The notes under the pieces were generated by a model. That model worked only from the letters and a program-made list of their open reading frames with translations. It did no database searches and was not told the origin of the DNA. This document shows positions 3,501-31,594 of a stretch of 64,000 nt of DNA, in pieces. The stretch lies in NCBI GenBank assembly GCA_903959905.1, contig CAJBYO010000015.1, positions 529 through 64,528 of the forward strand, in the 5' to 3' direction. Made by a program: the position numbers and the translations under genes. Every line of letters starts with the position of its first letter. Within the stretch, counting starts at the first letter, position 1. The stretch is from an uncultured Bacteroidales bacterium (lineage in GTDB: Bacteria > Bacteroidota > Bacteroidia > Bacteroidales > FEN-979).

Positions 3501-4091
3501 GTTTCCGCCTTCAAATGTAAACTCCACCTTCAGGTCTTTGTACACCACGAGGTCTTTTGTTACCGGGTTATACTGGAAAGGAGTAATGCCAAGAATCACG
3601 GCATCCACACCACGCACCTGGGTAACTTCTGAAACAGATACCGGGGAGGCAGGATAAAGTTCATTTTTTGAATAGACCTGCATGTTTTTTGCATATTCAA
3701 CGGGCCGGTCGTCATTGTCGAGTGGAATACGCGGAGCAGGTACTATGTCAACGTTGTGAATGATTTCCGTGACCTGGGATACGATCCTGAACTTTGGTGT
3801 TGAACCCTGAGGGATGGCAATGTACTTACCCTTTCCTGGTAAGTTGGGCATGCCTGCATCGTTGAAGAGAAACGAACCGGGGAGGTTGATATACTTCATC
3901 GGGGTGCCCTGTACATCCTGGTTTTCAAGTGAAAAGGTGGGAACAGCGTGGGCGACAGTAATACCTGTTGTTTTGGAGTCGACCAGGTTAAATCCGGGTT
4001 TTCCTGTGATCTCGGGATACAGGAATGTCTGGCTCCATGCACTGACAGCCGACAGGAGGAACAAAGCAACAAAAAGATAAATTTTTTTCAT
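579..4091 (-). CDS. Gingipain-like C25 cysteine peptidase with propeptide, PKD domains and T9SS C-terminal domain
   Basis: Signal peptide MKKIYLF...AWS-Q, C25 motifs (YIILTP, LILGD, SDNKY, HRDHG His, SINC Cys), two PKD repeats (WSWVF, WAWNFGD), CTD (FPNP...KGVYRL). Start moved to ATG 4091 because a TAnnTTTG box overlaps the ORF-track GTG. Confidence 0.9.
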   Translation of the reverse strand: MKKIYLFVALFLLSAVSAWSQTFLYPEITGKPGFNLVDSKTTGITVAHAVPTFSLENQDVQGTPMKYINLPGSFLFNDAGMPNLPGKGKYIAIPQGSTPKFRIVSQVTEIIHNVDIVPAPRIPLDNDDRPVEYAKNMQVYSKNELYPASPVSVSEVTQVRGVDAVILGITPFQYNPVTKDLVVYKDLKVEFTFEGGNGQFGNDAFRSTWWDAILQDNLLNYSSLPAVDYNARLQAYGKSPLTGECEYIILTPTGPGFLSWADSIRQFRTEQGILTKIFTVEEVGGNTVAAIEAFIDNAYNTWTIKPVACLILGDYGSDGTKNIISHLYTHPAAYPNYASDNKYADVTGDEMPDVVFSRITANDATQLQTMVTKFLNYERTPPVNPRFYDKPITALGWQTERWFQLCSEIVGGYFKTVQGKNPRRINKIYQGTPGTIWSSATNTNTLVNYFGPNGLNYIPTSPATLGSWDGGNATQINQAIDSGAFMLQHRDHGEYSGWGEPSYQISNINALTNTDLTFVFSINCQTGAYQRSTACFGEHFHRFVKNGHNSGALGLVCPSEVSYSFVNDTFVWGMYDNMWPNFMPAEGTNPVSRGVLPAFGAAAGKYFLKQSSWPYNSSDKLVTYRLFHMFGDAFQVLYTEVPQPLAVTHDEEINFGTTSFSIQTTDSAFIALTLNDQILATGYGSANGPVNLTIPVIPVGSMVKVTVTKHNYYRYSDFVPVTTVAVVANFAATATSLCIGSSVDYNDMSSGNPTSWSWVFQGGTPGTSNVQNPTGISYSQPGNHDVTLTVSKSTGDPVTVTKTAYIQVTGMPVAEFQANAGCPGVPVAFTDLTNPNGGTITSWAWNFGDPNSGTNNLSGDQNPTHTFNDPGTYAVSLDVTSNGICTNLKLNDVVVNSVPVSAATPQGESALCKNAAGKLYTTTGATGAASYNWTLEPVTAGTITGTGTTGTLTLATGFTGSFTIQVQGANDCGPGVVSEVLPVVVTEAPAAPAKPAGADSVDVNRTTQNDFITTEVPGAISYAWSLSPESAGTITGTAVTGSAIWNTSFRGSVNVKVKAVNLCGESVASEDKTLKLYSTLGLSDNNGLGMTIFPNPNDGKFSLDINAPSVSKINLTVYNTLGVVVYTENNVKLNGKLHKSIDLSNLPKGVYRLHVEGNGVSNTVSVLIGR

Positions 4092-4135
4092 AGGGTTCAT
4101 TTTTTTAAAGGTTGACCATGAGTGGTGGATACTCA

Positions 4136-4143
4136 CAAAAGTA
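4136..4143 (-). promoter_or_regulatory. Bacteroidota sigma70 -7 box (TACTTTTG)
   Basis: Matches TAnnTTTG, ~45 nt upstream of the C25 gene ATG. Confidence 0.55.
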
Positions 4144-4359
4144 CAAAATTTACCAGATAAAAGGCTGGATGTGTGAATAATTTAACAAAAAAGTTATATT
4201 TTTTGTAAGGGGAGCTCTGTTTCCGGGAAGGTAATGCTACCGCGAATTATGGAAAAAACCTTTGAGGATGACCCGCACGGCAGCCCTAACAGGTAAAGTC
4301 AAAAAAATCAGTTCCCTGGTGCCGGGAACCGGAATGTAAAAAAAAGCGAAGAGGCCAGG

Positions 4360-6450
4360 TTACCTGGCGACCACCACCTGTTTTGTCATGACTCCTTTTG
4401 ATGAGGTTAGCCGGAGGAGGTAAACTCCGTTCACCAGCTGAGGCAATGGAATAACGGTTGATTTTGTTCCTGCGCCCGGAACGTTAATCACACCCTGCCA
4501 CATCATTTTTCCTGATACAGACATGAGATCAGCATGGAAATCAATAATTTCCGGGGAATTGAAAGTCAATGTTACATAGTCTTTGCAGGGATTGGGTGAA
4601 ACACTGCAGGAATATTCACGTGAAAAGTTCGCTGTTCCAACACTCGGGTTGTCAATCCATACTTTCAGCGCAGGATCGCCCAGCACATTGCAATCGTAAT
4701 GGCACCAGCGCTGTGCCCCGGGTTCAAATTCGCCCGGAAGGCCAACCCAGGGGGCTGTCATGATCTTTGACATGGTGTGTGCGGAGCCAATGTCAGCAAT
4801 GGCTGAATCGGGGTTCGGGTCATACATGGCACTGATGAATTCACGGTGAAGGTGCGCAGAGGGGCCTTCTGTTGTTCCCTGGTCAAACCACCCGTATCTT
4901 GAGTTGAAGACGCCGCCAACCAGGAAGTTTGATATTGAGATACTGCGTTCCGAAATACAGTCAGATTCATCAAAAGCACCGCAAATGCATCCATGTGTGT
5001 ACATCAGCTGGTAATTATGCGTGATGCCGTTAACCTGCGAAAAATTCTGATTTGTGATATCCCAGTTGTTGAGCCGCATCATGTAGGTTGCGTTTGAATG
5101 GCCGCAATGGTGAATAAATGATTGCCCTGAGTTGATGGTGCTGAGCAACTGACCAACTCCCCAGTTGTACCCCGTTGTATCATACAGTCTTGTAATGGAA
5201 TTCTGAACTGAAGGGATCCCATGTGTGGTGTAACCGTTGTCGTTGTGTTCATCAATAAGGAGTTCAAGATAATCTGAGCCATACGTGATCGGGGGGTCGT
5301 ACAGAAACTCAGAAACGAGAAGAGGCTTTGTAAACGCTTCTGCCACAGGGCTTCCCTGGTAGGAAACGGATTTGTGAACCATACTTGCCAGTTCTGTTGC
5401 ATTGCTGAACGACATGCGCCCCACTGAAATTTCGGGCAGAAGGTCATCCTCTCCGGGTTCTCCCCATTTAGTGTCTCCGTTGGTATTCCAGTTGCCGTCG
5501 AGGGCTGAATAATAAATGTCGGCCGGAATATTGTAATCTTCATATCCTGAGCCGGAAATCACGTAGCAATAAAACCCGCGGTAGGGGATATATTCAACAT
5601 CACCACCCAGGATAACCTGTTCAATGCCGTTGGCCTGGTATTCGCTGATGATGTAGTTCCTGATTTTTTCCTGCAGATCTGCTCCCGGGGATGAAGCAAT
5701 GGCTTCGGTTGTGGCGATTTGAGTCGCCTGGTACTTGTTGTTATAATAGTCGGCGAGGTCCTGGAAACCGGCCTGATACTGTGCCGGTGTGATGATCAGA
5801 ATTTTATAATTTGATTTTAAGGTTCCCTTTGCGGGATAATTTTTCATCATCCCGGGATTCTGTGCAAAATGGCTGACCCTTTTCAGTGCATTTTCCGAGG
5901 AGGTGAGATTGTTCATGGCCCTGGTGGCGTCTGCATCAGGCCGGGTGGTGATTTTCACGGTAACCTTCCGGTAATAAGAAACAGTTTGTTTCGAGGGATT
6001 ATAGACAACCGGGGTAAAGGTTGAAAGGGCAAATGCGTAACCGTTGAGGTATGAATTAAGGAGGTTTCCTGCAGGCGTGAGGGGATAATTGGCGTGGGAA
6101 CGGTAAACGGCTTCATTTTTAATGAAATTCCCGTCGGGGCCTTTTGAAAGGGGTTGCATTTGTTGCTGCGGGAAGAGTTCAAATGTTCCGGGGATCGTTG
6201 TAAGTCCTTCACCGACGATCTGAATGGAGACTGCCTTTTCTCCCGGGGGCAGCATCATGGCCACCTGGCGGTAGGGCAGCATTGGCTCGCCCTGAAGGCC
6301 TGCCTGCATGGTATTGTCAAGTGCAACTGTCTGATATGTTCCGTTCTGACCGATTTTTACCTGTGAAAACGTATAGGTTTTTTCAACATGACCGGCAAAA
6401 AGGACTGCTGACAGACAGCAAAGGGAAAAAATGGCGAAGATATTTTTCAT
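4360..6450 (-). CDS. Second C25-family cysteine peptidase with propeptide and T9SS CTD
   Basis: MKNIFAIF signal peptide, ILIITP, VILGGD, ADIYY, SVGR, HCGHS (His), THGC (Cys), NVLGDP, CTD (SPNP...GVYLLR). Confidence 0.88.
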   Translation of the reverse strand: MKNIFAIFSLCCLSAVLFAGHVEKTYTFSQVKIGQNGTYQTVALDNTMQAGLQGEPMLPYRQVAMMLPPGEKAVSIQIVGEGLTTIPGTFELFPQQQMQPLSKGPDGNFIKNEAVYRSHANYPLTPAGNLLNSYLNGYAFALSTFTPVVYNPSKQTVSYYRKVTVKITTRPDADATRAMNNLTSSENALKRVSHFAQNPGMMKNYPAKGTLKSNYKILIITPAQYQAGFQDLADYYNNKYQATQIATTEAIASSPGADLQEKIRNYIISEYQANGIEQVILGGDVEYIPYRGFYCYVISGSGYEDYNIPADIYYSALDGNWNTNGDTKWGEPGEDDLLPEISVGRMSFSNATELASMVHKSVSYQGSPVAEAFTKPLLVSEFLYDPPITYGSDYLELLIDEHNDNGYTTHGIPSVQNSITRLYDTTGYNWGVGQLLSTINSGQSFIHHCGHSNATYMMRLNNWDITNQNFSQVNGITHNYQLMYTHGCICGAFDESDCISERSISISNFLVGGVFNSRYGWFDQGTTEGPSAHLHREFISAMYDPNPDSAIADIGSAHTMSKIMTAPWVGLPGEFEPGAQRWCHYDCNVLGDPALKVWIDNPSVGTANFSREYSCSVSPNPCKDYVTLTFNSPEIIDFHADLMSVSGKMMWQGVINVPGAGTKSTVIPLPQLVNGVYLLRLTSSKGVMTKQVVVAR

Positions 6451-19901: not shown

Positions 19902-19925
19902 GGTGGATGGGTGTAGATTCTGGTG

Positions 19926-19933
19926 CAAAGGTA
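19926..19933 (-). promoter_or_regulatory. Bacteroidota -7 box (TACCTTTG) for lnt
   Basis: TAnnTTTG match 24 nt upstream of the proposed TTG start. Confidence 0.6.
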
Positions 19934-19942
19934 AATAAAAAG

Positions 19943-20040
19943 GTGACAGGTGACAGGTGACAGGTGACAGGTGACGGGTGACGGGTGACGGGTGACGGGT
20001 GACAGGTGACGCGTGACGGGTGACGCGTGACGGGTGACAG
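19943..20040. repeat. 14-copy heptamer tandem array GTGAC(AG/GG/GC)
   Basis: Counted directly: 14 contiguous 7-mers with an invariant GTGAC core. Confidence 0.95.
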
Positions 20041-20125
20041 AAATAATCAAGGGTGATGGGTATTATTCGCCGGTATTTGCAGTAACTTAGCAGTGACGAT
20101 AGTTGAATGTCATAAATCCACCAGT

Positions 20126-21517
20126 ATGAAAAAACTGTTTTGCTTTTTGGTGATGTGTTCTGCAATAACCATGTTCGCCCAGCAGAGCGGGTATAAATCT
20201 TCTCCGCTGGAACATATGTGGCTGAATGTGGGAAACGCAGGGTTTACGCCGGGAACTGCTGAGTTTCCGTGCCTGGCAATGAGTCCTGCCGCTGTGCCAT
20301 ACGTGGCTTATGTTGATGCACTGGACATTTTCAATTTCACCGTCTCTGTTAAGAAACTGGTTGGTAATACATGGCAATACGTTGGCCTGGCCGGGTTTGA
20401 TACGGTGAACCTGTCGCCGGTTAACCTCGGATTCAGTCCATCAGGAGAGCTGTATGTTGCCTATTCAGATTATTATTCTTCCGGACGTGAAGCGGTCAGG
20501 AAATTTGACGGGACCAACTGGGTAACTGTCGGAATCCCTGGTTTTTCTGGCGGTTCGGCCAGCTATTCAGCCATGGCCTTCAATCAACAGGAAGAAATTT
20601 TTGTTGCTTACACGGATTACAATCATGCAAGAAAAGCTACCGTGATGAAGTTTGATGGGGCAAACTGGGTGACCATCGGCAGCCCTGGCTTTTCCCAGGG
20701 GGAAACTGAATACATGAGCATCGCCATCAGCCCGTCGGGCGAACCTTATGTGGCTTACCAGGATTGGTCTTTATCGCAAAAGATCACTGTCATGAGGTTT
20801 GACGGTACCTACTGGTTGAATGTAGGAATTCCGGGTATTTCATTGGGAGAGTCTTACTGGGCCAGCATTGTCTTTAATCCTTCCGGTGATCCGTGTGTTG
20901 CTTTTATGGATGGCGGGAATTCATACAAGGCAACGGTCATGAAATTTGATGGCAATAACTGGGTGAGCCTTGGAAATGCCGGTTTTTCTCCAGGTTCGGC
21001 ACAGTGCCCTAATCTCGCGTTCAGCCCGTCGGGACAACCTTATGTTTCTTTTAATGATGAAACCGTTGGATTTAAAACATCCCTTATGATATTCAACGGA
21101 ATGAACTGGGTAAATGTGGGGAATCCAGGGTTTTCAGCCGGACAAAGTCTTTATACCAGCCTTGGGTTTGGCCCGTCCGGCCAGCCTTACCTGGCCTACC
21201 AGGACATGACGAATTTTAACCGGGCAACCGTTATGAAATATGATTCAGTTGCCGTGGGGTTGAATGAACAGGAAAGTCCTCTTTTTTCTGTATACCCCAA
21301 CCCTGCTTCGGAAATAATAAGGATCAAACCCGGAAGAACCACCCCTGAAGGCCTTTTTTACATCACGAATGTTGTTGGAAAACGGGTCATTGAGCGGCAA
21401 GTGGGAGTTTCCGGCCTGACTGTGGATATCAGTGGCCTACCTGCCGGCGTGTATTTTATCAGACATGAAGATGAAAGGGAGGGAAAGGCTGTGAAGCTGA
21501 TCATTCAGCGGGATTAA
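20126..21517 (+). CDS. T9SS-secreted protein with seven ~48-aa repeats (probable beta-propeller)
   Basis: Signal peptide MKKLFCF...MFA-Q; 7 x W..VG..GFS.G....SLAF.PSG.PYVAY.D.....ATVMKFDG; CTD VYPNP...GVYFIR. Confidence 0.85.
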   Translation: MKKLFCFLVMCSAITMFAQQSGYKSSPLEHMWLNVGNAGFTPGTAEFPCLAMSPAAVPYVAYVDALDIFNFTVSVKKLVGNTWQYVGLAGFDTVNLSPVNLGFSPSGELYVAYSDYYSSGREAVRKFDGTNWVTVGIPGFSGGSASYSAMAFNQQEEIFVAYTDYNHARKATVMKFDGANWVTIGSPGFSQGETEYMSIAISPSGEPYVAYQDWSLSQKITVMRFDGTYWLNVGIPGISLGESYWASIVFNPSGDPCVAFMDGGNSYKATVMKFDGNNWVSLGNAGFSPGSAQCPNLAFSPSGQPYVSFNDETVGFKTSLMIFNGMNWVNVGNPGFSAGQSLYTSLGFGPSGQPYLAYQDMTNFNRATVMKYDSVAVGLNEQESPLFSVYPNPASEIIRIKPGRTTPEGLFYITNVVGKRVIERQVGVSGLTVDISGLPAGVYFIRHEDEREGKAVKLIIQRD

Positions 21518-21563
21518 TGGGATCACAATGGCTTAACCTGGATTAAGAACTTGAGGTTTTTTT

Positions 21564-21661
21564 ACCACGGAGGCACTAAGGACACTAAGGAACACTAAGG
21601 ATGCAACATTAAATTTCTTTTTTTCTAAGTGCTTCTTAGTGTTCTTAGTGCCTTAGTGGTT
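21564..21661. repeat. Inverted-repeat element built from CACTAAGG units
   Basis: Left accacggaggcactaaggacactaaggaacactaagg, right cttagtgttcttagtgccttagtggt, AT-rich spacer. Confidence 0.85.
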
Positions 21662-21688
21662 GTTTTTCAACATTATACTATTTTCAAA

Positions 21689-22249
21689 ATGTGTCATCTG
21701 TTCAGGACGGTTAAAATTGAGGCCTTTTTTGTCCTCATTCTTTCAACATTCTTCATATTATCATCCTGTAAACGGCATAATACTGCGGTGCCAGATGCCA
21801 CTCCCACTTACCATACATGGCCCGGCACGATTGGCTTAAACGATAATTCAACCGTGGTATCCCAGGATAATAATCTGATTATCTGTGGAAACAAAAATGA
21901 CAGCATCGTTCTTCTTAAAATTTCAAAAACCGGCACCCTGGTTTGGCGGCATGTTTTTTATGCAGGTTTTCATAGCACGGCGGCAGCCGTTGCAATTTCT
22001 ACAGGACAGGAAATTTTTATTTGTGGTAAGGCTTATGAAAATCCCAACATATCCATCAACGATGTTTTACTGATCAAGGCTGATCAGAATGGCGATACCC
22101 TCTGGACAAAGAAATACGGAGGGGCAAAAGAGGATCTTGGTTCACAGATCATCGCGACGCGTGATGGGATTATCCTGATCTGTGGAACATCTTCATGTCC
22201 AGGATTGATAAAAACGGAACCTTCAGGTAGGTCATGCCCCTGCCAGTAA
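21689..22249 (+). CDS. Putative lipoprotein with propeller-like repeats, possibly 3'-truncated
   Basis: Lipobox LSSC; only ~2.5 repeats of L(L/I)K...G...W; ends 11 nt from the convergent activase gene. Confidence 0.55.
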   Translation: MCHLFRTVKIEAFFVLILSTFFILSSCKRHNTAVPDATPTYHTWPGTIGLNDNSTVVSQDNNLIICGNKNDSIVLLKISKTGTLVWRHVFYAGFHSTAAAVAISTGQEIFICGKAYENPNISINDVLLIKADQNGDTLWTKKYGGAKEDLGSQIIATRDGIILICGTSSCPGLIKTEPSGRSCPCQ

Positions 22250-22260
22250 GCGCTCTGAAA

Positions 22261-23163
22261 TCATGCAATTTCACAGTTCAGTCCCTTCATTTTGAAAAAA
22301 TCCCTTGCCATTGCTGCTTTTTCAAAGGGGTAATCAGAAATGTCGGCGAGCTGGAAATGTATGCCGATTTCCTGGTATTTTTCAATTCCCAGCGAATGGT
22401 AAGGCTCCAGAACAATCTCCTGCAGGGCATTAAGTGTCATAATATCCGAAATGGCCTGCAGGTTGGCAGTGGTGTCGGTGATTTCCTCTACCAGTGGCAC
22501 CCGGATGACGATATTTTTATGCAGGGAGGCCAGGAAAGCCAGGTTTTCCAAAACCCGGTCTACAGGTTTTCCCGTGTACGCCAGGTGTTGGTCCGGATCA
22601 ATGATCTTAAGGTCGTAAAGAAAAAGTCCTGTAAGTGGCAAAACTTGCCGGAGTGTCTCTTTTTCTGCCCATCCGGAGGTCTCAATTGCTGTGTGGATCC
22701 CGAGGGTTTTGCAGTGCTGCAGTAACTCAAGTAGAAACTCCGGCTGGCTCAGTGGCTCGCCCCCTGAAAAGGTGACTCCGCCGCCTGAATTCCTGTAAAA
22801 AGGAATGTCGCGCGCCACAATCCCCATCACCTCTTCTGCCGACATGGTTTTACCGGAAACAGTTAACGCACCTTGATTGCATTTTTCAACGCATACCCGG
22901 GTGGTGCAGTGTTTGCAATGTTCAAAGGAATGCGTGAAAGCACTGTCACCTGGTGAAATATCCCGGTGAGGGCAATGCTGTAAACACGAATGGGAAGATT
23001 TGCATCGTGAGGGAAAGTATCTCAGCTGTGGCAGGAAATCCTGCGACTCGGGATTGCAGCACCACGCACAGCGCAGCGGGCAACCTTTAAAAAACACCAG
23101 TGTCCGAATCCCCGGACCGTCGTGCACCGCATAATGCTGGATGTCGAAAACAGTTCCGTTCAT
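22261..23163 (-). CDS. Glycyl-radical enzyme activating protein (radical SAM)
   Basis: HDGPGIRTLVFFKGCPLRCAWCCNPE, Cys-rich ferredoxin-like insert, GGGVTFSGGEP, AIETSG, YDLK; ATG overlaps the GRE stop (TGATG). Confidence 0.95.
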   Translation of the reverse strand: MNGTVFDIQHYAVHDGPGIRTLVFFKGCPLRCAWCCNPESQDFLPQLRYFPSRCKSSHSCLQHCPHRDISPGDSAFTHSFEHCKHCTTRVCVEKCNQGALTVSGKTMSAEEVMGIVARDIPFYRNSGGGVTFSGGEPLSQPEFLLELLQHCKTLGIHTAIETSGWAEKETLRQVLPLTGLFLYDLKIIDPDQHLAYTGKPVDRVLENLAFLASLHKNIVIRVPLVEEITDTTANLQAISDIMTLNALQEIVLEPYHSLGIEKYQEIGIHFQLADISDYPFEKAAMARDFFKMKGLNCEIA

Positions 23164-25655
23164 CAATTCAGGCAGTGTTCGGTGCGCCAGATTACCTGGT
23201 CCTGCAAAGCCTTGCTCATTTCAACCCAATAGGCGGAAAACCCGGCCACCCTCACAACCAGGTCGCGGTAGTTTTCGGGGTGTGCCTGCGCATCCTTCAG
23301 CATCCGTGAATCAACAACGTTGAACTGAAGCTGGAAACCGGGGAACTCAAAATAGGTTTTGATCAGGGCCAGCAGGTTCATTGACCCGGAAAGGCCCTTC
23401 AGGGCGGAGGGATGAAATTTAAGGTTCAGGAGGCCGCCCCTGATCCTGGTGTGATCAACCTTTGCAGATGACCTGATGACGGCAGTAGGGCCGTTCATGT
23501 CTGTTCCGGGGAATGGCGAAGTAACACCATCGGCCAGGGGTTCGCCCAGCATGCGCCCATCGGGGAATGCACCGCACACCTTCCCGAATGGAACTGGGGT
23601 GGAGATTGCCAGCATGGACGGATCATAGGGTTTGCCGAGATAATTATTCTGGCCCTGAACCCAGTCGCAGTAGTCATTGTAAAGATCCAGAAAAATATCG
23701 TCAGCATAAGCCTCATCATTTCCCCAGTGCGGAACGGCCAGCGCCTGTTTCCGGAGCCCTTCGTGTCCTTCCCAGTTTTTCCTTACTGCATCAAAGAGTT
23801 CTTCAACCTTGCAAACGGGCTCGTCAAAGCATAGTTTTTTAATTACAGCCAGTGAATTGGCCACATTGACCATGCCGGATGAAAGGGTTGTGATCGTCTG
23901 GTTCAGCAGCGCACCGCCATCATCCATGCATTGCCCTTTGATAAGGCAATCATTGACGAACACAGAACAAAAAACAAGCGGAACCGTATTCCGGTGGGCG
24001 ATCATCACAAAATTCCAGTACTGCTGCCAGTTCCTGACGGTTTCGTGCATGATATCCAGGTAATATTTCCTGATCTCACTGTAGGTTGACAGCGTACGTG
24101 GCTCAAACATCCGGATGCCTGTGGAAGGATCCACGCCCTGGTTGACCACCAGGTCGATGATCTTGCCATGGTTAATAAAACCTGCCTGGACAATACCATA
24201 CGACCTGCCCTGCAGGGTTGGTTCGGTACATCCGCCGATGGCACAGTGCTTCCTGATCATTTCAACTGGCAGGCCGCTGGTTTTCAACTCGTGCTGTATG
24301 TATGTTGACTGGTTGAAAAAGGCAGGGTAACCTACCCCTGTTTTCACGCATTCAACTGCCTTCATCAGAAATTCCTGGTCAAGTTTATCGTCCCACCATA
24401 CCGAGAGTGTAGGCTGGGTCATCTGCATGTTGATCTGTGCCTGCAGGATGGCCAGCGAAACATCGTTGCTGATGGGGTTGCCCTTTTCATCAATGCCGCC
24501 CAGGATCAGGTTCTGATAGAGGTTCCCGTGACCGAGCCCCTGCCAGCTGAGGCTGGCGATGTATTCTATCTGGGTCATTTTAACGAACAGCTCCTCAAAC
24601 AAGGAAATTGCCAGGGCGGGGGTCATATCCGGGTCGGCGGCATAAAAAGGGTAAAGCACCATGTCAAGCCTGCCGGGAGAATATCCCAGGTGAGAGCCTT
24701 CAATATGGCCCAGGAGATAAGTAAACCAGAATGACTGAACTGCCTCCTTGAAATTCCGGGGAGGTTCCATCGGCACGCGGCGGCAAACGGCTGCCATTTC
24801 CTCCAGTTCAATTCTGCGGTAAGGGTCTGTCTCCAATGCAGCCATCCTTTCGGCCTCGGCAGCGTAGTTCAATGCGAAGGCTTCAGCCCCTTTCAGAACT
24901 GTTATGGCTGCTTTCCAGAAATGTAGTCTGGCGGAGCTGGCAATATCTTCCGGATGAAAGGTATTTATCTTTTCTTCCGTCTCCCGGATAATGGCGTTGT
25001 AACCCTTTGTCAGGGCCATTTCATAATCCAGGATCAGCCGTCCTTCCGGGCAGGGTTCATGAGGGGCGGTATACAGCCCTGTTTTCCAGCCGTTTTCAAT
25101 GAAATCGGCTTTCTGGAAATGGTTTTTCCAGATCCTGTTGCCCTGTTCCATAAACGACCTGTCTTCCCAGTATTCGCAGATATCGCGGAACTGATCGTAA
25201 TCATCGCTGCTGATCAGGAATTTGCCGGAGATCAGGCGCAAACCGCCCTGCCCCGCCTCTGCCAGGGCTTTTTCAATTCCACCACCGATGCCCTGCTCAG
25301 CATGCTTCGACTGGGCGTCCTGCTCCTCCCTGCGCATTTCGCTTAAAAACGGGCCTGCCGCATAATTAGCGTATGGCATGGCACCCCTGATATATCTTGT
25401 CTTATTCCCGGCAAGGGTATCCTGCCTGTGGATGACCGGGGTCATCTGGCCGAGGGCATAGGCATGGTCAGTGCCCCGGCGCTCAAGGGTCTCCATCCCG
25501 TCGGTTTTTCGATGAGAGTCGGTCAGGTGCCGGATGTACTCAATATCCACCATCAGGGGAGAATCAAGGTAACGGCTTTTGAAAAATCCTGTTCGGGTTG
25601 TTCCTGGTTTGCCGGTTATCTCACGGCTTGCAATGGAACCGGTAATAGTTTCCAT
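23163..25655 (-). CDS. Glycyl-radical enzyme (PFL2/dehydratase-like superfamily), substrate unknown
   Basis: 830 aa; Gly loop VVRVAGFSAYW, single-Cys loop IGGCTEP, SPGRLD, NLILGG, LQFNVV. Confidence 0.93.
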   Translation of the reverse strand: METITGSIASREITGKPGTTRTGFFKSRYLDSPLMVDIEYIRHLTDSHRKTDGMETLERRGTDHAYALGQMTPVIHRQDTLAGNKTRYIRGAMPYANYAAGPFLSEMRREEQDAQSKHAEQGIGGGIEKALAEAGQGGLRLISGKFLISSDDYDQFRDICEYWEDRSFMEQGNRIWKNHFQKADFIENGWKTGLYTAPHEPCPEGRLILDYEMALTKGYNAIIRETEEKINTFHPEDIASSARLHFWKAAITVLKGAEAFALNYAAEAERMAALETDPYRRIELEEMAAVCRRVPMEPPRNFKEAVQSFWFTYLLGHIEGSHLGYSPGRLDMVLYPFYAADPDMTPALAISLFEELFVKMTQIEYIASLSWQGLGHGNLYQNLILGGIDEKGNPISNDVSLAILQAQINMQMTQPTLSVWWDDKLDQEFLMKAVECVKTGVGYPAFFNQSTYIQHELKTSGLPVEMIRKHCAIGGCTEPTLQGRSYGIVQAGFINHGKIIDLVVNQGVDPSTGIRMFEPRTLSTYSEIRKYYLDIMHETVRNWQQYWNFVMIAHRNTVPLVFCSVFVNDCLIKGQCMDDGGALLNQTITTLSSGMVNVANSLAVIKKLCFDEPVCKVEELFDAVRKNWEGHEGLRKQALAVPHWGNDEAYADDIFLDLYNDYCDWVQGQNNYLGKPYDPSMLAISTPVPFGKVCGAFPDGRMLGEPLADGVTSPFPGTDMNGPTAVIRSSAKVDHTRIRGGLLNLKFHPSALKGLSGSMNLLALIKTYFEFPGFQLQFNVVDSRMLKDAQAHPENYRDLVVRVAGFSAYWVEMSKALQDQVIWRTEHCLN

Positions 25656-25789
25656 GACTTTGATTTAAAGTATTTTACTGTTCTGAACACAGTATTTAAT
25701 AATTGCCGTCATATGCTTCTGTATCACTACGCAGAATGCGTTGTTTTCATAAAAAAATCAATAACGCCAATTAGATAGTAAAATTAATC

Positions 25790-25797
25790 TAAATTTG
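25790..25797 (+). promoter_or_regulatory. Bacteroidota -7 box (TAAATTTG)
   Basis: TAnnTTTG match ~30 nt upstream of the binding-protein ORF. Confidence 0.5.
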
Positions 25798-25828
25798 CTA
25801 TGCAGCGAATGAATTACAGCAAATTACT

Positions 25829-26932
25829 TTGGATAAGGTATCTTTGAAAAACGGATCTTCATCATGTTCGCCGGGGTCTTCCATTCCCCGGTCGCGGATC
25901 TTAATCTGCCTTACCCTGGTATTGTCTATGTTCTCCCCGGTTTTTTTCGCTTCCTGCACCCGGAGCGAAAAGGAGAAATCAACTGCTGAAACTCCGGTTA
26001 AAGAAGTAAAAGAAGGTCTGTCACAGCATGTTTCAAGAAAAGTTCGTTTGATCCCCTACTGGGTAACTTCAGCCCAATTCGCCGGGTATTATGTCGGCAT
26101 TGAAAAAGGTATATTCCGCAAATACAACATTGACCTTGAGATCCTGCCTTTTGACCCGTTTACTTCTGCAACCCCGGTAATCAGCAGCGGATCAGCTGAT
26201 TTTGCGATTTTATGGCTGGTAAATGCCCTTGAGCTCCGCGACCAGGGGGTGAAAATTGTGAACATTGCACAACTTTCAACGAGGTCGTCGCTGATGCTGC
26301 TGACAAAAAAAAGCAGCGGAATCGGTACGATTGAGGGCATGAACGGAAAACGGGCGGGGATCTGGTCAGGTTTTGAACTTCAGCCCGAAGCGTTGTTCAG
26401 GAAGTACGGAATTGATGTTAAACTTGTCTCCATTGGAAGTTCCAACAGTTTGTTCCTTCTTGACGGGGTGGATATCATCAATGCCAACTGGTTTGATGAG
26501 TATCATGCCATCCTGAACAGTGGCTATGACGAAAATGAACTGAACAAGTTCTTTTTTGCCGATTACGGGTTAAACTTCCTTGAAGATGGCATATACTGCC
26601 TTTCAGAAAAGTTGAAAAAGGATCCCGGGTTATGTGAAGATTTTGTAAAAGCCTCCGTAGAAAGCTGGACATATGCATTTGATAACCAGGAGGAAACCAT
26701 TGGGATCGTGGAGCGCAAGGCCATCAGTGAAAACCGCCCGGTGAACCGGTCGCACGTACAGTGGATGCTCAACTGCTACCGTGACCTGTACATCCCGAAA
26801 GGCAAAACGGCAGTCAGTACAACACTTTCATCCGGTGATTATATGACGGTTGCCGGCATCCTTTTGAAAAACCGCCTCATCGGAACGGTGGCGCCATACG
26901 ACAGTTTTTATATACCCCTGAAGATAAAATGA
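25829..26932 (+). CDS. NMT1/THI5-like substrate-binding (lipo)protein
   Basis: AQFAGYYVGIEKG motif, GSADFA, FVKASVESW; lipobox-like FASC; exact start uncertain. Confidence 0.8.
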   Translation: MDKVSLKNGSSSCSPGSSIPRSRILICLTLVLSMFSPVFFASCTRSEKEKSTAETPVKEVKEGLSQHVSRKVRLIPYWVTSAQFAGYYVGIEKGIFRKYNIDLEILPFDPFTSATPVISSGSADFAILWLVNALELRDQGVKIVNIAQLSTRSSLMLLTKKSSGIGTIEGMNGKRAGIWSGFELQPEALFRKYGIDVKLVSIGSSNSLFLLDGVDIINANWFDEYHAILNSGYDENELNKFFFADYGLNFLEDGIYCLSEKLKKDPGLCEDFVKASVESWTYAFDNQEETIGIVERKAISENRPVNRSHVQWMLNCYRDLYIPKGKTAVSTTLSSGDYMTVAGILLKNRLIGTVAPYDSFYIPLKIK

Positions 26933-29091
26933 TCCTGCCCGGAATGATGAAAAACGCAAGTGAACACAGTAAGGAAACCAAAAAGAGAACCTTCAGGGGC
27001 ATTGCATTTAAACTGATCCTCTCCATCTTTATCTGCTGTTCCGTGATTTTTGCCATACTGTTTGCCTATAACCTGAAGATCACGCGAAGCATTGTTGTCA
27101 GGAATCTCATCAACAGTGCCACATACCTTACCGAATCAACGGTGGCGAAAATTGACAAGGTGCTTAACAGCATACAAACGATCCCCGACAACTTTGCCCC
27201 GATCATCGAACGGAACCTGGATAACGAGGCAGAGATGAAGCAGCTGGTTCGGCTGATGGTTGCCAACAATCCCGACATCCTGGGGGCTGCCCTCGCCTTT
27301 GAGCCCTATTCCCGCAATCCGAGGGAAAAATATTTTTCCTATTATTTTCACAGGAAGGGGGATTATATAAACTTCATCACTCTGGGAAATGAGCATTACG
27401 ATTATTTCACCATGGACTGGTACCAGCTTCCGAAGGAACTTGGCCGCGGGGTGTGGAGTGAGCCCTATTTTGACGAAGGCGGGGCAAACATGCTGATGAC
27501 AACTTACGCGGTGCCCATTTACAGGGAGCGGGAAGGGAAAAAGGTGTTTGCCGGAGTTCTCACGGTTGATCTTTCACTGGACTGGCTCCAGCATTACGTC
27601 GGGCGGATTAAAGTAAATGAAACCGGATACGGTGTACTGATTTCTCAGAATGGAACCATTGTCAGCTATCCGCTGAAGAAGTTCATCATGAATGAGACCA
27701 TTTTCAGCATTGCCGATGAGCAGAAATCACCCGAACTCAGAGAAGTGGGAAGAAAAATGGTTCACGGAGAATCGGGGTTCAGTAATCATGAATATAAAAA
27801 CTCGGTCAACGGTAAACCCTGCTGGCTTGCCTACGCCCCTGTCACACTGAACCGCTGGTCGATTGGGATATTTTTCCCGGTGGAGGAGATCATGGCGGAT
27901 GCCACGCATCTCAGCATCGTCATCTTTGCCCTGGGTGCCGGGGGCTTCTGCGGCATTGTGATCCTTATTGTGCTCATTGCCAGATCAATTACCAGTCCCC
28001 TGCGACGTCTCACGCAAGCTGCAGAGATGTTTGCCGCAGGTGATTTTAACGTGAAACTGCCTTATATCAGATCAAGGGATGAGATAGGCAGACTCAATGT
28101 ATCTTTCATCGTAATGCAACAAAAACTTGCTGCCACGATCGGTGAACTGCGAAATGCTTCGGAACAGCTGATGATCTCCAATGAAAAACTGGAAGAGTAC
28201 AACAGGACGCTGGAGCAGAAAGTTGAGATCCGTACATCCGAGTTACAACAGAAACATATTGAACTGGAATCAGCATTTACCCACCTGAAAGATGCCCAGG
28301 CACAACTCGTTCAGTCTGAAAAAATGGCTTCGCTCGGGCAACTTACCGCTGGGATTGCGCACGAAATAAAGAATCCGTTGAATTTCATCAACAATTTCTC
28401 GGAAGTCTCGGTTGAACTTGCAGCGGAACTTATCCAGGAACTTGATAAACCGGGCATTGTCATTGACGAAAAAGAATCCGGATACATCAAGGGGATCATT
28501 GCAGATATTGAAGGAAATGCACGGCGTATCCATGAGCATGGGAAAAGAGCCGACAGTATTATCCGCAGCATGCTGCTCCATTCACGCGGAAAGTCGGGTG
28601 AACGCCAGCCAACGGATATCAACGCCCTGCTGGAAGAATATGTAAAGCTCGGATATCATGGCATGCGCGCCACCGATAACACCTTTAACATTAAAATTGA
28701 GAGTGAATATGATCCGGAACTGAAAACAATTTCGGTGGTTCCGCAGGACATCAGCAGGGTATTTCTGAACATGATCAACAATGCCTTTTACTCCACCGCC
28801 CAGAAGAAAAAGGAGCTGAAGGAGGCCTATTTCCCGGTGCTCAGGGTAAAGACGATGCTTTTAAACGATACCGTGGAGATCAGGATTTTCGATAACGGCA
28901 AAGGCATGTCAAAGGATACGGTAGAGCGGGTCTTCAACCCGTTTTTCACCACGAAACCTGCCGGTTCAGGCACCGGGCTGGGCCTTTCAATCAGTTACGA
29001 CATCATCGTTCGCCAGCACAACGGGCAGATCAGTGTAGTCAGCGAGGAGGGCGAATTCGCCGAATTCATCATTACCCTGCCCGTCACCTGA
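26929..29091 (+). CDS. Cache-HAMP sensor histidine kinase
   Basis: Two TMs, dCache (DWYQLPK, WSEPYFDEGG), HAMP (DEIGRL), H-box AGIAHEIKNPL, N/G boxes (DNGKG, PFFTTK, GTGLGL); ATGA overlap with the upstream gene. Confidence 0.93.
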   Translation: MILPGMMKNASEHSKETKKRTFRGIAFKLILSIFICCSVIFAILFAYNLKITRSIVVRNLINSATYLTESTVAKIDKVLNSIQTIPDNFAPIIERNLDNEAEMKQLVRLMVANNPDILGAALAFEPYSRNPREKYFSYYFHRKGDYINFITLGNEHYDYFTMDWYQLPKELGRGVWSEPYFDEGGANMLMTTYAVPIYREREGKKVFAGVLTVDLSLDWLQHYVGRIKVNETGYGVLISQNGTIVSYPLKKFIMNETIFSIADEQKSPELREVGRKMVHGESGFSNHEYKNSVNGKPCWLAYAPVTLNRWSIGIFFPVEEIMADATHLSIVIFALGAGGFCGIVILIVLIARSITSPLRRLTQAAEMFAAGDFNVKLPYIRSRDEIGRLNVSFIVMQQKLAATIGELRNASEQLMISNEKLEEYNRTLEQKVEIRTSELQQKHIELESAFTHLKDAQAQLVQSEKMASLGQLTAGIAHEIKNPLNFINNFSEVSVELAAELIQELDKPGIVIDEKESGYIKGIIADIEGNARRIHEHGKRADSIIRSMLLHSRGKSGERQPTDINALLEEYVKLGYHGMRATDNTFNIKIESEYDPELKTISVVPQDISRVFLNMINNAFYSTAQKKKELKEAYFPVLRVKTMLLNDTVEIRIFDNGKGMSKDTVERVFNPFFTTKPAGSGTGLGLSISYDIIVRQHNGQISVVSEEGEFAEFIITLPVT

Positions 29092-29094
29092 CAC

Positions 29095-29140
29095 GGCCAC
29101 GAAGTGGCCATACATCAATAACCCGGGGCGCAGCCCCGGG
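29095..29140. repeat. Two short GC-rich hairpins between kinase and regulator genes
   Basis: ggccac-gaa-gtggcc and ccgggg-cgcag-ccccgg; no U-tail. Confidence 0.5.
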
Positions 29141-29191
29141 CCCCTCAACCAGACGCCTCACGCATGATATTGACCAGTAAATAAAGTATAT

Positions 29192-30370
29192 ATGAACGAA
29201 CTAAGTACCTCCAGTGTGAAAATAATGGTCGTCGACGACGAAACCGATCTGGAACCCCTGATCCGGCAGAAGTTCCGCCGGCAGATCCATGAAGGGAAAT
29301 ATGACTTTGTATTTGCCTTCAACGGACTCGAAGCGCTGAGCCGGCTCATTGAATTCCCAACTATCGGAATCATCCTCTCGGATATCAACATGCCTGAAAT
29401 GGACGGCCTTACGTTACTCTCCGAATTGAAAGCGCTGAAGAATCCCGGGTTGAAAACGGTTATCGTATCCGCTTACGGCGACATGGAGAATATCCGTACC
29501 GCCATGAACCGCGGAGCATTCGATTTTCTGACCAAACCTATAAACTTTTTGGACCTTGAGATCACCATTGATAAAACCATGGATGAGATCATGCAGCTTC
29601 GTCGTTCCATGAAAGAGCATGATCAGCTGATCTCCATCCGCCAGGATCTGCAAACGGCCCGTGAGATCCAATTAGCCATTCTGCCTAAAGTGTTTCCCCC
29701 GTTCCCGAACCGTACTGATTTTGACATATTCGGATCCATGATCGCAGCGAAGGAAGTAGGTGGCGATTTCTACGACTTCTTCATGATTGACAACAAACGG
29801 CTGGGGTTTGTCATCGGCGATGTTTCGGGAAAAGGTGTTCCTGCAGCTATTTTCATGGCCGTGAGCCGGACACTCATTCGCGCTACCGGGCTGAAGGGAA
29901 TTCCTACCGGCGAATGCATGTCGTATGTAAACAACCTGCTGTGCAGCGAAAGTGTTTCGTGCATGTTTGTCACCGTTTTTTACGGTATCCTGAATACAGA
30001 AACCGGCGAAGTGGAGTATGTCAACGCAGGGCATAATCCGCCTTATATTTTGTCGGCCAGTGGATTACGCAAAGTTGAAATGACTGGAAGTGTGGTACTT
30101 GGGTGTTTTGAAAATATGGAATACAAATCAAAAAGGGTAACGCTGGCCCCCGGTGATAAATTATTTTTGTTTACCGACGGCGTTACAGAAGCGTTTGACA
30201 AGGACGACCAGATTTATGGCGAAGCGCGGCTTGAAGAATACCTCCAAAAGAACTCGCATAAACCGATCAAAGAGATCACTGACAGCACAAATCTGGAGCT
30301 GGCCAATTTCATGGCAGGGGCTGAAATGTCTGATGACATTACCATGCTGATCTTACAAATTTCAAAGTAA
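29192..30370 (+). CDS. Response regulator with SpoIIE/PP2C phosphatase output (RsbU-like)
   Basis: REC (VVDDE, LSDINMPEMDG, FLTKP) plus PP2C (VGGDFYD, GDVSGKG, NAGHNPP, FTDGVTE, DDIT). Confidence 0.93.
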   Translation: MNELSTSSVKIMVVDDETDLEPLIRQKFRRQIHEGKYDFVFAFNGLEALSRLIEFPTIGIILSDINMPEMDGLTLLSELKALKNPGLKTVIVSAYGDMENIRTAMNRGAFDFLTKPINFLDLEITIDKTMDEIMQLRRSMKEHDQLISIRQDLQTAREIQLAILPKVFPPFPNRTDFDIFGSMIAAKEVGGDFYDFFMIDNKRLGFVIGDVSGKGVPAAIFMAVSRTLIRATGLKGIPTGECMSYVNNLLCSESVSCMFVTVFYGILNTETGEVEYVNAGHNPPYILSASGLRKVEMTGSVVLGCFENMEYKSKRVTLAPGDKLFLFTDGVTEAFDKDDQIYGEARLEEYLQKNSHKPIKEITDSTNLELANFMAGAEMSDDITMLILQISK

Positions 30371-30412
30371 ACTATAGAAGGATAGGTTTGCTGCCTTACA
30401 AGTGGAAATTCT

Positions 30413-31594
30413 CTATTTCCATTGATTCTCCGGGTACCTCACTGTTACAATCTTCCTCACCTCACGGTGTAGCGTTTCCCGCAGCACGTCAATATTTTCC
30501 TTATTGGTGGCTGAAATGAACAGCGACGGAAGGTTTTCATGCGCCATCCATGTCCGTTCCAGTTCTTCAAGGGTCATATTTTCCCTGGTCGGGGGTGTGA
30601 GGTCGTCGGAATCCTTTTCGGTGAACCTGTACGCATCGATCTTGTTGAAAACCATGATGGTAGGTTTGTCGGAGGCTTTGATGTCGGTGAGTGTTTGCTT
30701 CACCACGTTGATCTGTTCTTCAAAATCACGGTGGCTGATATCGGCCACATGCACCAGGATATCGGCTTCGCGCACTTCGTCAAGGGTTGACTTGAACGAT
30801 TCCACCAGGGAATGGGGGAGTTTGCGGATAAAGCCGACAGTGTCTGACAGCAGGAACGGCTGTGTTTCAATAACTACCTTACGTACTGTGGTATCCAGTG
30901 TGGCAAATAACTTATTTTCAGCAAAAAGCTCGGATTTGCTGAGCACATTCATGATGGTTGATTTGCCAACGTTGGTATAGCCCACCAGTGCCACGCGAAC
31001 CATGTCGCGGCGGTTTTTCCGTTGGGTGGCCATCTGTTTGTCAATCTCTTCCAGCTTATCTTTCAGCAGGCTGATACGGTAACGGAGGATACGCCGGTCA
31101 GTTTCAATTTCCTGCTCGCCGGGGCCACGAAGCCCGATGCCTCCGCGTTGCTTTTCAAGGTGGGTCCACATCCGGGTTAGACGGGGCAGAAGATATTCAT
31201 TCTGTGCAAGTTCAACCTGTGTTCGTGCGTAGGAAGTAACAGCGCGACGTGCAAAGATATCCAGGATGAGGTTGTTCCGGTCAAGGATGCGGCATTGCAG
31301 CACGTTTTCAATATTGCGGATCTGGCTTGGGGAGAGTTCATCATCAAAAACGACCATGTCGGTTGGATTGGCCTCCATCCAGGCTTTGATCTCCTGTAAT
31401 TTACCGCTTCCGACATAAGTGCGTGAATCAGCATGATCAACCCGCTGGACGAATTGTTTAACAGGAACTCCTCCGGCTGTATCAACCAGGAAGGCAAGTT
31501 CATCAAGATATTCGGTGGTACGGTCCATATCCTGCAGGCGGGTCGACAAACCAACCAGCACGGCAGTTTCTTTCACAGGAGCGGTCTCTATCAT
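30413..31594 (-). CDS. hflX: GTPase HflX
   Basis: GPGEQEIETDRR, GYTNVGKST, LFATLD, DTVGFI, NKID. Confidence 0.96.
   Translation of the reverse strand: MIETAPVKETAVLVGLSTRLQDMDRTTEYLDELAFLVDTAGGVPVKQFVQRVDHADSRTYVGSGKLQEIKAWMEANPTDMVVFDDELSPSQIRNIENVLQCRILDRNNLILDIFARRAVTSYARTQVELAQNEYLLPRLTRMWTHLEKQRGGIGLRGPGEQEIETDRRILRYRISLLKDKLEEIDKQMATQRKNRRDMVRVALVGYTNVGKSTIMNVLSKSELFAENKLFATLDTTVRKVVIETQPFLLSDTVGFIRKLPHSLVESFKSTLDEVREADILVHVADISHRDFEEQINVVKQTLTDIKASDKPTIMVFNKIDAYRFTEKDSDDLTPPTRENMTLEELERTWMAHENLPSLFISATNKENIDVLRETLHREVRKIVTVRYPENQWK

Follow-up and report, generated by a model that had tools for sequence, protein, structure and literature searches.

A probable arylacetate decarboxylase outside the indoleacetate and 4-hydroxyphenylacetate decarboxylase families, encoded by a glycyl radical enzyme cassette of uncultured anaerobes

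We examined a 64,000-nucleotide stretch of DNA (hereafter, the window) from an uncultured Bacteroidales bacterium (GenBank assembly GCA_903959905.1, contig CAJBYO010000015.1, positions 529 to 64,528 of the forward strand; coordinates below are those of the window). Our subject is an intact two-gene cassette on its minus strand, which encodes an oxygen-sensitive glycyl radical enzyme (GRE) of 830 amino acids and a radical-SAM activase. An original prediction, made by a model from the letters of the sequence alone, had proposed a GRE of new substrate specificity. Here, we report two new genomic clues to the substrate: an operon that relatives of the enzyme share with indoleacetate decarboxylase (IAD), and a chromosomal slot that is empty in the host where related genomes encode 4-hydroxyphenylacetate decarboxylase (HPAD).

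A glycyl radical enzyme with its cognate activase

The two genes and the parts of the enzyme discussed below are as follows.

23163-25655, minus strand: open reading frame (ORF) of the GRE (P0001), 830 amino acids, single subunit; from the ORF and family scans
22261-23166, minus strand: radical-SAM activase ORF as called; the likely gene is 22261..23163
25209..25352, minus strand: approximate extension 1, an active-site cap with GGG (residues ~102-149) common to IAD and HPAD; aligned without gaps to P0348 over IAD 124-169
25038..25061, minus strand: His199-Glu200-Pro-Cys202-Pro203-Glu-Gly-Arg206; Arg206 corresponds to IAD Arg226 and HPAD Arg223
24516..24545, minus strand: Trp371 (IAD Trp392, the channel gate) to Tyr380 (IAD Phe/Tyr401, HPAD Phe405), from the alignment
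24222..24230, minus strand: predicted thiyl-radical loop Cys476-Thr-Glu478 (IAD Cys500/Glu502, HPAD Cys503/Glu505), in 120/120 family members
24177..24188, minus strand: Gln490-Ala-Gly-Phe493, with Gln490 at the position of IAD His514, Gly492 at HPAD His536 and Phe493 at IAD Phe517, from the alignment
23883..23885, minus strand: Leu591 (IAD Leu616; in HPAD, the phenol-deprotonating Glu637), from the alignment
23241..23243, minus strand: Gly805 in RVAGF, predicted glycyl-radical site (IAD Gly853), from the sequence motif

The 830-residue protein carries the Pfam domains PF02901 (PFL-like) and PF01228 (glycine-radical) and, with its barrel fold, Cys476, Gly805 and activase, is a member of the GRE superfamily. 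The motifs listed in the original prediction (IGGCTEP with Cys476 and Glu478, WQGLGHGNLYQ, VQAGF, MLAISTP, and the replacement of the usual GH) are all present, as are EPCPEGRLILDYE and RVAGF with Gly805. Since the pocket motifs are invariant or nearly so across the 120 members of our family alignment, they are not a chance resemblance. The strict glycyl-radical fingerprint is altered at one place, where Met stands for the usual Phe, Leu or Ile.

The translational coupling that had been proposed was likewise confirmed: on inspection of the sequence, the stop codon of the GRE gene shares bases with the ATG of the activase gene (TGATG, 23165-23161). This makes the ATG at 23163 the probable start of the activase, which would then have ~300 amino acids. 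It contains CxxxCxxC at Cys29/33/36 and a ferredoxin-like insert (Cx5Cx3C, Cx2Cx4Cx3C), passes TIGR02494 with 331 bits (cut-off 174), and is the cognate activase of the GRE. Its first auxiliary-cluster motif reads Cx5Cx3C, with Ser58, compared with Cx2Cx2Cx3C in 64 of the 66 listed homologues. We discarded decay of the activase, suggested by Ser58 in place of Cys, as a weak reading: the gene is not interrupted, and the same shorter spacing is found in the activase of HPAD in a related genome (G435).

An active site of the IAD/HPAD type

We compared the family alignment with 53 IAD-type proteins; the 14 of them that were scanned with profiles all passed the IAD cut-off. IAD residue numbers were transferred through P0348, which carries the Olsenella uli numbering and whose local sequence agrees with published O. 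uli primers.

The active-site signature had been described as not assignable to a known class. This part of the original prediction did not hold, for Arg in place of the GH histidine, the Trp, the Tyr/Phe, the Cys-x-Glu loop, the Phe and the Leu are those of the IAD/HPAD pocket. Arg206, within EPCPEGRLILDYE, stands at the alignment position that His occupies in the GH motif of glycerol dehydratase. Trp371 is found in 120/120 members, and position 380 is Tyr in 95 and Phe in 25. Leu682 corresponds to IAD Leu730, and Ile684 aligns with P0348 Ile732 (the publication gives Ile731). Alongside these shared positions, the family has invariant polar residues of its own that match neither IAD nor HPAD: His199 (120/120), an acidic residue 200 (Glu in 86 members, Asp in 34), His322 and Gln490. 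The last was found in all 120 members and in five further ones examined, at the position where all 53 IAD-type proteins have His514. His199 and the acidic residue adjoin Pro203, the equivalent of IAD Cys223, a position at the far end of the IAD pocket. An AlphaFold2 model of the GRE, built from the 120-sequence alignment, reached a pLDDT of 84 and a pTM of 0.89, with low confidence in the Trp371 and Gly loops; it matched known GRE barrels with TM-scores of 0.78-0.87, the best in the fold search being 0.86-0.87.

A sister group of IAD and HPAD

The best NCBIfam match of the GRE was IAD (NF033718) at 731 bits, which is below both the cut-off of 1100 and the range of IAD-type proteins (1180-1766). 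HPAD (NF033715) came second with 487 bits, against a cut-off of 1150. Hidden Markov models of the eliminases, namely glycerol dehydratase, propanediol dehydratase, CutC, HypD, HpsG and HpfG, gave 375-479 bits (cut-offs 678-1109).

In a 31-row tree (LG+G4; without PhdB and AAD), the family formed its own clade with support of 100/100, placed as sister to IAD and HPAD at 98/97, while the latter two grouped together at 100/99. A tree constrained to unite the family with IAD was rejected by the approximately unbiased (AU) test under LG+G4 with no mixture model (p 0.0014). By this placement, the clade is a widespread sister group of the skatole-forming IAD and the p-cresol-forming HPAD. Several unassigned branches (P0126, P0130, P0133, P0137 and P0141) surround IAD and HPAD in the same tree.

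Sequence and fold searches of the PDB both returned glycerol dehydratase first, and identities among the PDB matches were 27-30%. We set this ranking aside as a guide to function, since IAD was not among the matches returned. A search of the ESM Atlas returned generic GRE clusters only, and no published characterisation of the clade was found in the literature searched, which left subscription journals largely outside. As originally predicted, then, a Bacteroidota genome here encodes an uncharacterised GRE whose pocket is distinct: its identity to the 53 IAD-type proteins is 34-40%, and none of the characterised families compared here combined high identity with full pocket conservation. Overall, pocket and phylogeny make it very probable that the enzyme is an arylacetate decarboxylase of the IAD/HPAD type that lies outside both families.

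Distribution of the family

Among the matches listed in a protein search, 119 relatives were 67-79% identical to the GRE, and deeper family members were found at 55% and 42%. A genome scan recovered 74 loci, all metagenome-derived, with titles naming Bacteroidales, Acidobacteriota, Myxococcota, Elusimicrobia, Aminicenantes, Omnitrophota and others. The activase lies directly downstream in 67 of the 74 loci, and six of the other seven end at most 60 bases from the GRE match. It is the only neighbour conserved across the loci. The wider neighbourhood was rejected as a guide to function, as the hydrolases, thioredoxins, enolase, GH123 and MutS seen among 94 Pfam-scanned neighbour ORFs recur by host lineage. 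The distribution is patchy, with the family present in none of 400 other genomes sampled across the phylum and in 6 of 90 genomes of the host family; across the order, 6 of 400 other sampled genomes had close members, and one more had a GRE of 35% identity. No match above 32% identity appeared among the 25 listed in a plasmid search.

Pairing with IAD in one operon

In one related genome (G821), a family member 76% identical to the host GRE lies in a run of six co-directional genes, which encode a fused IOR-like oxidoreductase of 838 amino acids (below the IOR cut-offs), a PLP aminotransferase, the GRE, its activase, an IAD of 883 amino acids and a further activase. The 883-residue protein passes the IAD cut-off (1227 vs 1100 bits). 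The same gene order was found in a second species (locus L210), the IADs of the two being 91% identical; locus L209 duplicates G821 and was not counted, and the other five metagenome loci examined were without the GRE family. A further genome, G531, holds both enzymes on different contigs. Aminotransferase and aryl-pyruvate oxidoreductase are known upstream steps of p-cresol formation (PMC13285125), and IAD is reported to pair mostly with HPAD, in 8 of 12 species (PMC6181972). Because a bona fide IAD shares the operon in two relatives, the family is unlikely to represent a second IAD. The operon supports the arylacetate decarboxylase class and argues against indoleacetate as the substrate, and thus against the public label "indoleacetate decarboxylase" that some members bear.

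It is nonetheless conceivable, if unlikely, that the enzyme is a divergent decarboxylase of indoleacetate or hydroxy-indoleacetate, in which Gln490 replaces His514 as acceptor of the indole N-H bond and the products are of the skatole type. Eight IAD pocket residues are kept, Leu616 and Trp392 among them, the best profile match is IAD, IADs with Tyr401 occur naturally, and substitution of His514 is reported to leave some activity (PMC9248008). Yet the same work gives a 66-fold lower kcat and a 70-fold higher Km for H514A, and this histidine is present in every IAD-type protein of our set. The coexistence with IAD in two operons and in the G531 genome and the rejection of the constrained tree also speak against this explanation, as does, weakly, the host tryptophanase (869 bits, cut-off 750), which would compete for tryptophan.

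Two further observations concern related clusters. In G771, the same type of fused-IOR and aminotransferase cluster contains a third uncharacterised GRE (L181:1486-3951, P0129 type), which is 35% identical to P0001 and has a Cys-Val-Asp loop. In addition, an environmental IAD subclade (L182:1483-4134, L133:1483-4176, P0302-P0316 and P0125), 72-90% identical to the G821 copy, occurs in Bacteroidota, Omnitrophota and Riflebacteria; at least six scanned members exceed the IAD cut-off, and their hosts, which belong to neither Clostridia nor Coriobacteria, likely form skatole.

Complementary distribution with HPAD

HPAD was detected in 67 of the 90 host-family genomes (60 over the cut-off and 7 partial, leaving out four further rows that were cross-matches of the GRE family), and in none of the six that carry the GRE. 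Within the host genus, it was present in 27/40 genomes and in 0/6 carriers (Fisher p 4.5e-4, a test that ignores kinship). In the related genomes G419 and G435, the gene order is yqgE, a membrane gene, hpdB-C-A, a type IX secretion system (T9SS) protein, an aminotransferase and a 2-oxoacid oxidoreductase. Each of the six carriers has an empty HPAD slot, with the membrane gene directly next to the T9SS gene; as the slot is contiguous on one contig in each, the absence of HPAD from it is not an assembly gap. The host retains the aminotransferase and the 2-oxoacid oxidoreductase beside the empty slot and has an IorAB-like pair elsewhere.

On a PolA tree (a quick single-gene tree with three partial rows), the six hosts fall into three or more separate positions, and monophyly of their enzymes is improbable (AU p 0.045). 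Two other families also lacked overlap between the GRE and HPAD, in small numbers (G541 and G542 vs their relatives; G950 vs G821 and G948), and the family of G869 gave no HPAD-like match. We regard the exclusion pattern in the host family as suggestive only.

The complete or partial HPAD large-subunit genes of the host family (e.g., L100, L200, L201 and L203) belong, where examined, to an intact hpdBCA, which in the host genus lies beside an aminotransferase and a Vor-like oxidoreductase. The HPAD-bearing members of this family are likely a large group of p-cresol producers outside gut Clostridia.

4-Hydroxyphenylacetate as the leading candidate

We favour 4-hydroxyphenylacetate as the substrate because close relatives carry either the GRE or HPAD and were not seen with both. 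The enzyme would then form p-cresol, likely in place of the HPAD that the host lacks. This proposal is tentative, and we place it a little short of an even chance. A new substrate specificity, as in the original prediction, is conceivable, though the genomic clues point rather to a known substrate that is turned over by an enzyme other than the established one. That such a reaction is feasible is illustrated by AAD, which is reported to decarboxylate 4-hydroxyphenylacetate with neither the HPAD residues nor a small subunit (PMC13450708).

Several points weigh against this assignment. Its weak point would be phenol binding, as both HPAD phenol-binding residues are gone (Leu591 stands for Glu637 and Gly492 for His536) in a pocket, oriented here by alignment, that is otherwise IAD-like; calculations link the Kolbe route of HPAD to deprotonation by Glu637 (PMC9248008). 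Loss of HPAD also needs no replacement, given that 7 of the 40 genus genomes carry neither enzyme, and the slot is empty in four of five such genomes examined. An independent-pairs test over supported branches, which takes kinship into account, gave three pairs, one opposite and two uninformative (p = 1). Outside the host family HPAD is rare (19/401 over the cut-off), and the count of 0/50 carriers with HPAD (50 of 72 loci) was dropped as evidence against a background of ~5%. Finally, the IAD operon is known from two related species only, and IAD occurs in 1 of 50 other carriers and in 0 of 90 host-family genomes.

If 4-hydroxyphenylacetate is the substrate, catalysis might proceed as follows. 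In keeping with GRE chemistry, the activase would place the radical on Gly805, from which a Cys476 thiyl radical would arise. In an IAD/HPAD-like pocket, the substrate carboxylate would face Cys476 and undergo one-electron oxidation of the Kolbe type, with departure of CO2 (PMC13232127). Glu478, acting through water, would reprotonate the Cys476 thiolate, and Cys476-H would quench the benzylic radical. Arg206 would stack on the ring as a cation-pi partner, and Trp371 would gate the channel. More speculatively, Gln490 together with His199/Glu200 or His322 may take over binding of the ring hydroxyl. A start by H-atom transfer is the alternative (PMC9248008). Physiologically, an aminotransferase and a 2-oxoacid:ferredoxin oxidoreductase would supply the arylacetate to the GRE, which would perform the final, proton-consuming step of an oxidative aromatic amino-acid fermentation.

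Other candidate reactions

The substrate could instead be another arylacetate, or several of them, such as 3-hydroxy-, 3,4-dihydroxy- or methoxy-phenylacetate or imidazoleacetate. The redundancy with HPAD would then be physiological only, lying in the proton-consuming last step. We hold this to be rather improbable, though the invariant His199, Glu/Asp200, His322 and Gln490 match neither IAD nor HPAD, and the distinct GRE in the G771 cluster implies that this operon slot takes several specificities. However, no pathway gene for such substrates is linked to the family in the 74 loci, and the characterised GRE decarboxylases are described as specific for the acids of the three aromatic amino acids (PMC9248008).

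More doubtful is phenylacetate, converted to toluene either alone or along with 4-hydroxyphenylacetate, which beside IAD would complete the Phe/Tyr/Trp set. The pocket is hydrophobic and has neither Glu637 and His536 of HPAD nor His514 of IAD, any substrate other than an indole would agree with the operon that includes IAD, and the DNA is found in metagenomes of lake water, from which it may derive. A toluene-producing extract was reported also to decarboxylate 4-hydroxyphenylacetate in the absence of detectable CsdBC (PMC4979209), an activity that purified PhdB does not have (PMC7079210). On the other hand, PhdB has a Cys-x-Gln loop and its Q484E variant is inactive (PMC7079210), whereas all 120 members of our family have Cys-x-Glu. 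Phenylacetate is moreover the energetically hardest substrate (PMC7079210, PMC4979209), and the exclusion of HPAD would be explained less directly. A bolder form of this idea, equally doubtful, is that the cassette represents a fifth kind of GRE decarboxylase, found in uncultured anaerobes of many phyla, whose IAD-like Cys-x-Glu/Arg pocket would act on unactivated phenylacetate, with or without 4-hydroxyphenylacetate.

Least probable is an eliminase or another radical enzyme that is no decarboxylase: glycerol dehydratase is the top PDB match in sequence and fold, and the clade falls outside IAD and HPAD among other uncharacterised GREs and lacks their extension 2, but those PDB matches are distant and did not include IAD, the GH motif reads GR, all eliminase scores are far below their cut-offs and below the IAD score, and the operon context is one of aromatic amino-acid oxidation.

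Genomic setting and other host enzymes

The cassette lies in a variable insert, recognised from relatives that have no cassette in the same slot.

19902..30422, no strand: variable insert of ~10.5 kb between lnt and hflX, which holds the cassette

The lnt and hflX flanks are 177 bases apart in G419 and 0.7-2.5 kb apart in G435, G450, G433 and G432. On the activase side, the cassette is followed by a 206-residue ORF with no Pfam family and a gene for a T9SS-tail protein; the opposite flank encodes an NMT1-like binding protein, a dCache histidine kinase and a SpoIIE-type regulator. We rejected the last three, divergently oriented genes as partners of the cassette, as they are located elsewhere in relatives. 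In agreement with the original prediction, flanking ORFs and family scans revealed no microcompartment, small-subunit, transporter or dehydrogenase gene near the cassette. Promoter and terminator scans of the cassette stayed at chance level. One public contig in each of two lake-water metagenome runs spans 20011-31500 without differences, and these runs may be the source of the DNA; no RNA dataset was among the public runs listed as containing the stretch.

At the left edge of the insert lies a tandem array of a 7-nt unit (GGTGACA/GGTGACG; 19928-20052), which lengthens the called lnt ORF and recurs in related genomes in dozens of copies. A 36-nt inverted repeat with a 25-nt spacer (21564-21660), located between the 206-residue ORF and the T9SS gene, is multi-copy in relatives. 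The 206-residue ORF itself (21629-22249, plus strand) resembles the start of a beta-propeller lipoprotein (a weak match to the LipL53 family), ends 12 bases from the activase stop, and was possibly truncated where the cassette entered.

Elsewhere, the host genome encodes a second unassigned GRE of 812 amino acids (G000:C85:150-2585, L163) with a Cys-Val-Gly loop that has neither Glu nor Gln. All its NCBIfam scores are under the cut-offs (best HypD, 486 vs 1100), and a phosphofructokinase-like gene separates it from an activase at 3842-4813. A hydroxyproline dehydratase, HypD (G000:C29:138711-141272, L076:1006-3567), scores 1169 against a cut-off of 1100 and is accompanied by an activase. No phenylacetate-CoA ligase scored over the cut-off in the host genome. 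The tryptophanase TnaA (G000:C29:81905-83278, L158), over its cut-off, adjoins an ORF that by eye resembles phosphate butyryltransferase, the type of enzyme by which Clostridium scatologenes frees arylacetate from its CoA ester (PMC13285125).

Implications

The operon and exclusion patterns narrow an orphan GRE to a short list of candidate substrates. Should p-cresol be the product, surveys based on HPAD overlook a whole group of organisms that form it, among them Bacteroidota, Acidobacteriota, Myxococcota, Elusimicrobia and Aminicenantes. Should it be toluene, the enzyme is relevant to the long-standing question of biological toluene formation in anoxic lakes; as a fifth kind of decarboxylase, it would be a common source there that is independent of PhdB.

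Comparison with known GRE decarboxylases

Four GRE decarboxylases have been characterised so far, according to PMC13450708. PhdB (PAD), by its description, is like our enzyme an arylacetate GRE with a single subunit; the two are similar in size, and both come from uncultured anaerobes. It differs in its Cys-x-Gln loop, in place of our invariant Cys-Thr-Glu, and in its Trp495/Tyr691/His327 pocket (PMC7079210). AAD of O. scatoligenes (PDB 7E7L) is also a single-subunit enzyme and makes p-cresol without the HPAD residues (PMC13450708). It is distant, with 345 bits in phmmer and 27% identity in a Foldseek structural alignment, and is reported to be without the IAD/HPAD extensions (PMC13232127), whereas our GRE has extension 1, as defined in the same source.

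Compared with HPAD (HpdBCA/CsdBCA; NF033715; PDB 2Y8N/2YAJ), the GRE keeps Arg223, Gly345, Phe405 (as Tyr/Phe), Cys503 and Glu505, shares extension 1 and a Pro three residues before the Arg, has a TM-score of 0.87 to 2YAJ, and shows the complementary distribution in the host family. It differs in its identity of 31-32%, in the absence of extension 2 and of the small Fe-S subunit, and in having Leu591, Gly492 and Leu323 in place of Glu637, His536 and Ser344 (HPAD residues as listed in PMC4979209). The stop/start overlap leaves no room for hpdC between large subunit and activase in the host, the gaps in 67 related loci are 0-187 bases, and tblastn of the host genome for the small subunit gave no match at E<=1e-3.

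The closest likeness is to IAD (O. uli, O. scatoligenes, C. scatologenes; NF033718), a single subunit with a dedicated activase and extension 1, as here. Eight of its pocket positions are kept (Arg226, Trp392, Phe/Tyr401, Cys500, Glu502, Phe517, Leu616 and Leu730), along with Gly853. In contrast, His514 is replaced by Gln490 and Cys223 by Pro203, the protein is 26 residues shorter at the N-terminus and has no counterpart of the 23-residue extension 2 (IAD 651-675, gapped against P0348), identity is 35% to P0348 and 34-40% to the IAD-type set, and the family forms a separate clade that occurs beside IAD, not in place of it. The mechanism of GRE decarboxylases is disputed between a Kolbe-type route (PMC13232127) and H-atom transfer (PMC9248008). 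As a sister of IAD and HPAD with the ring-heteroatom partner of neither, the clade offers a natural test of the residues that the Kolbe route needs.

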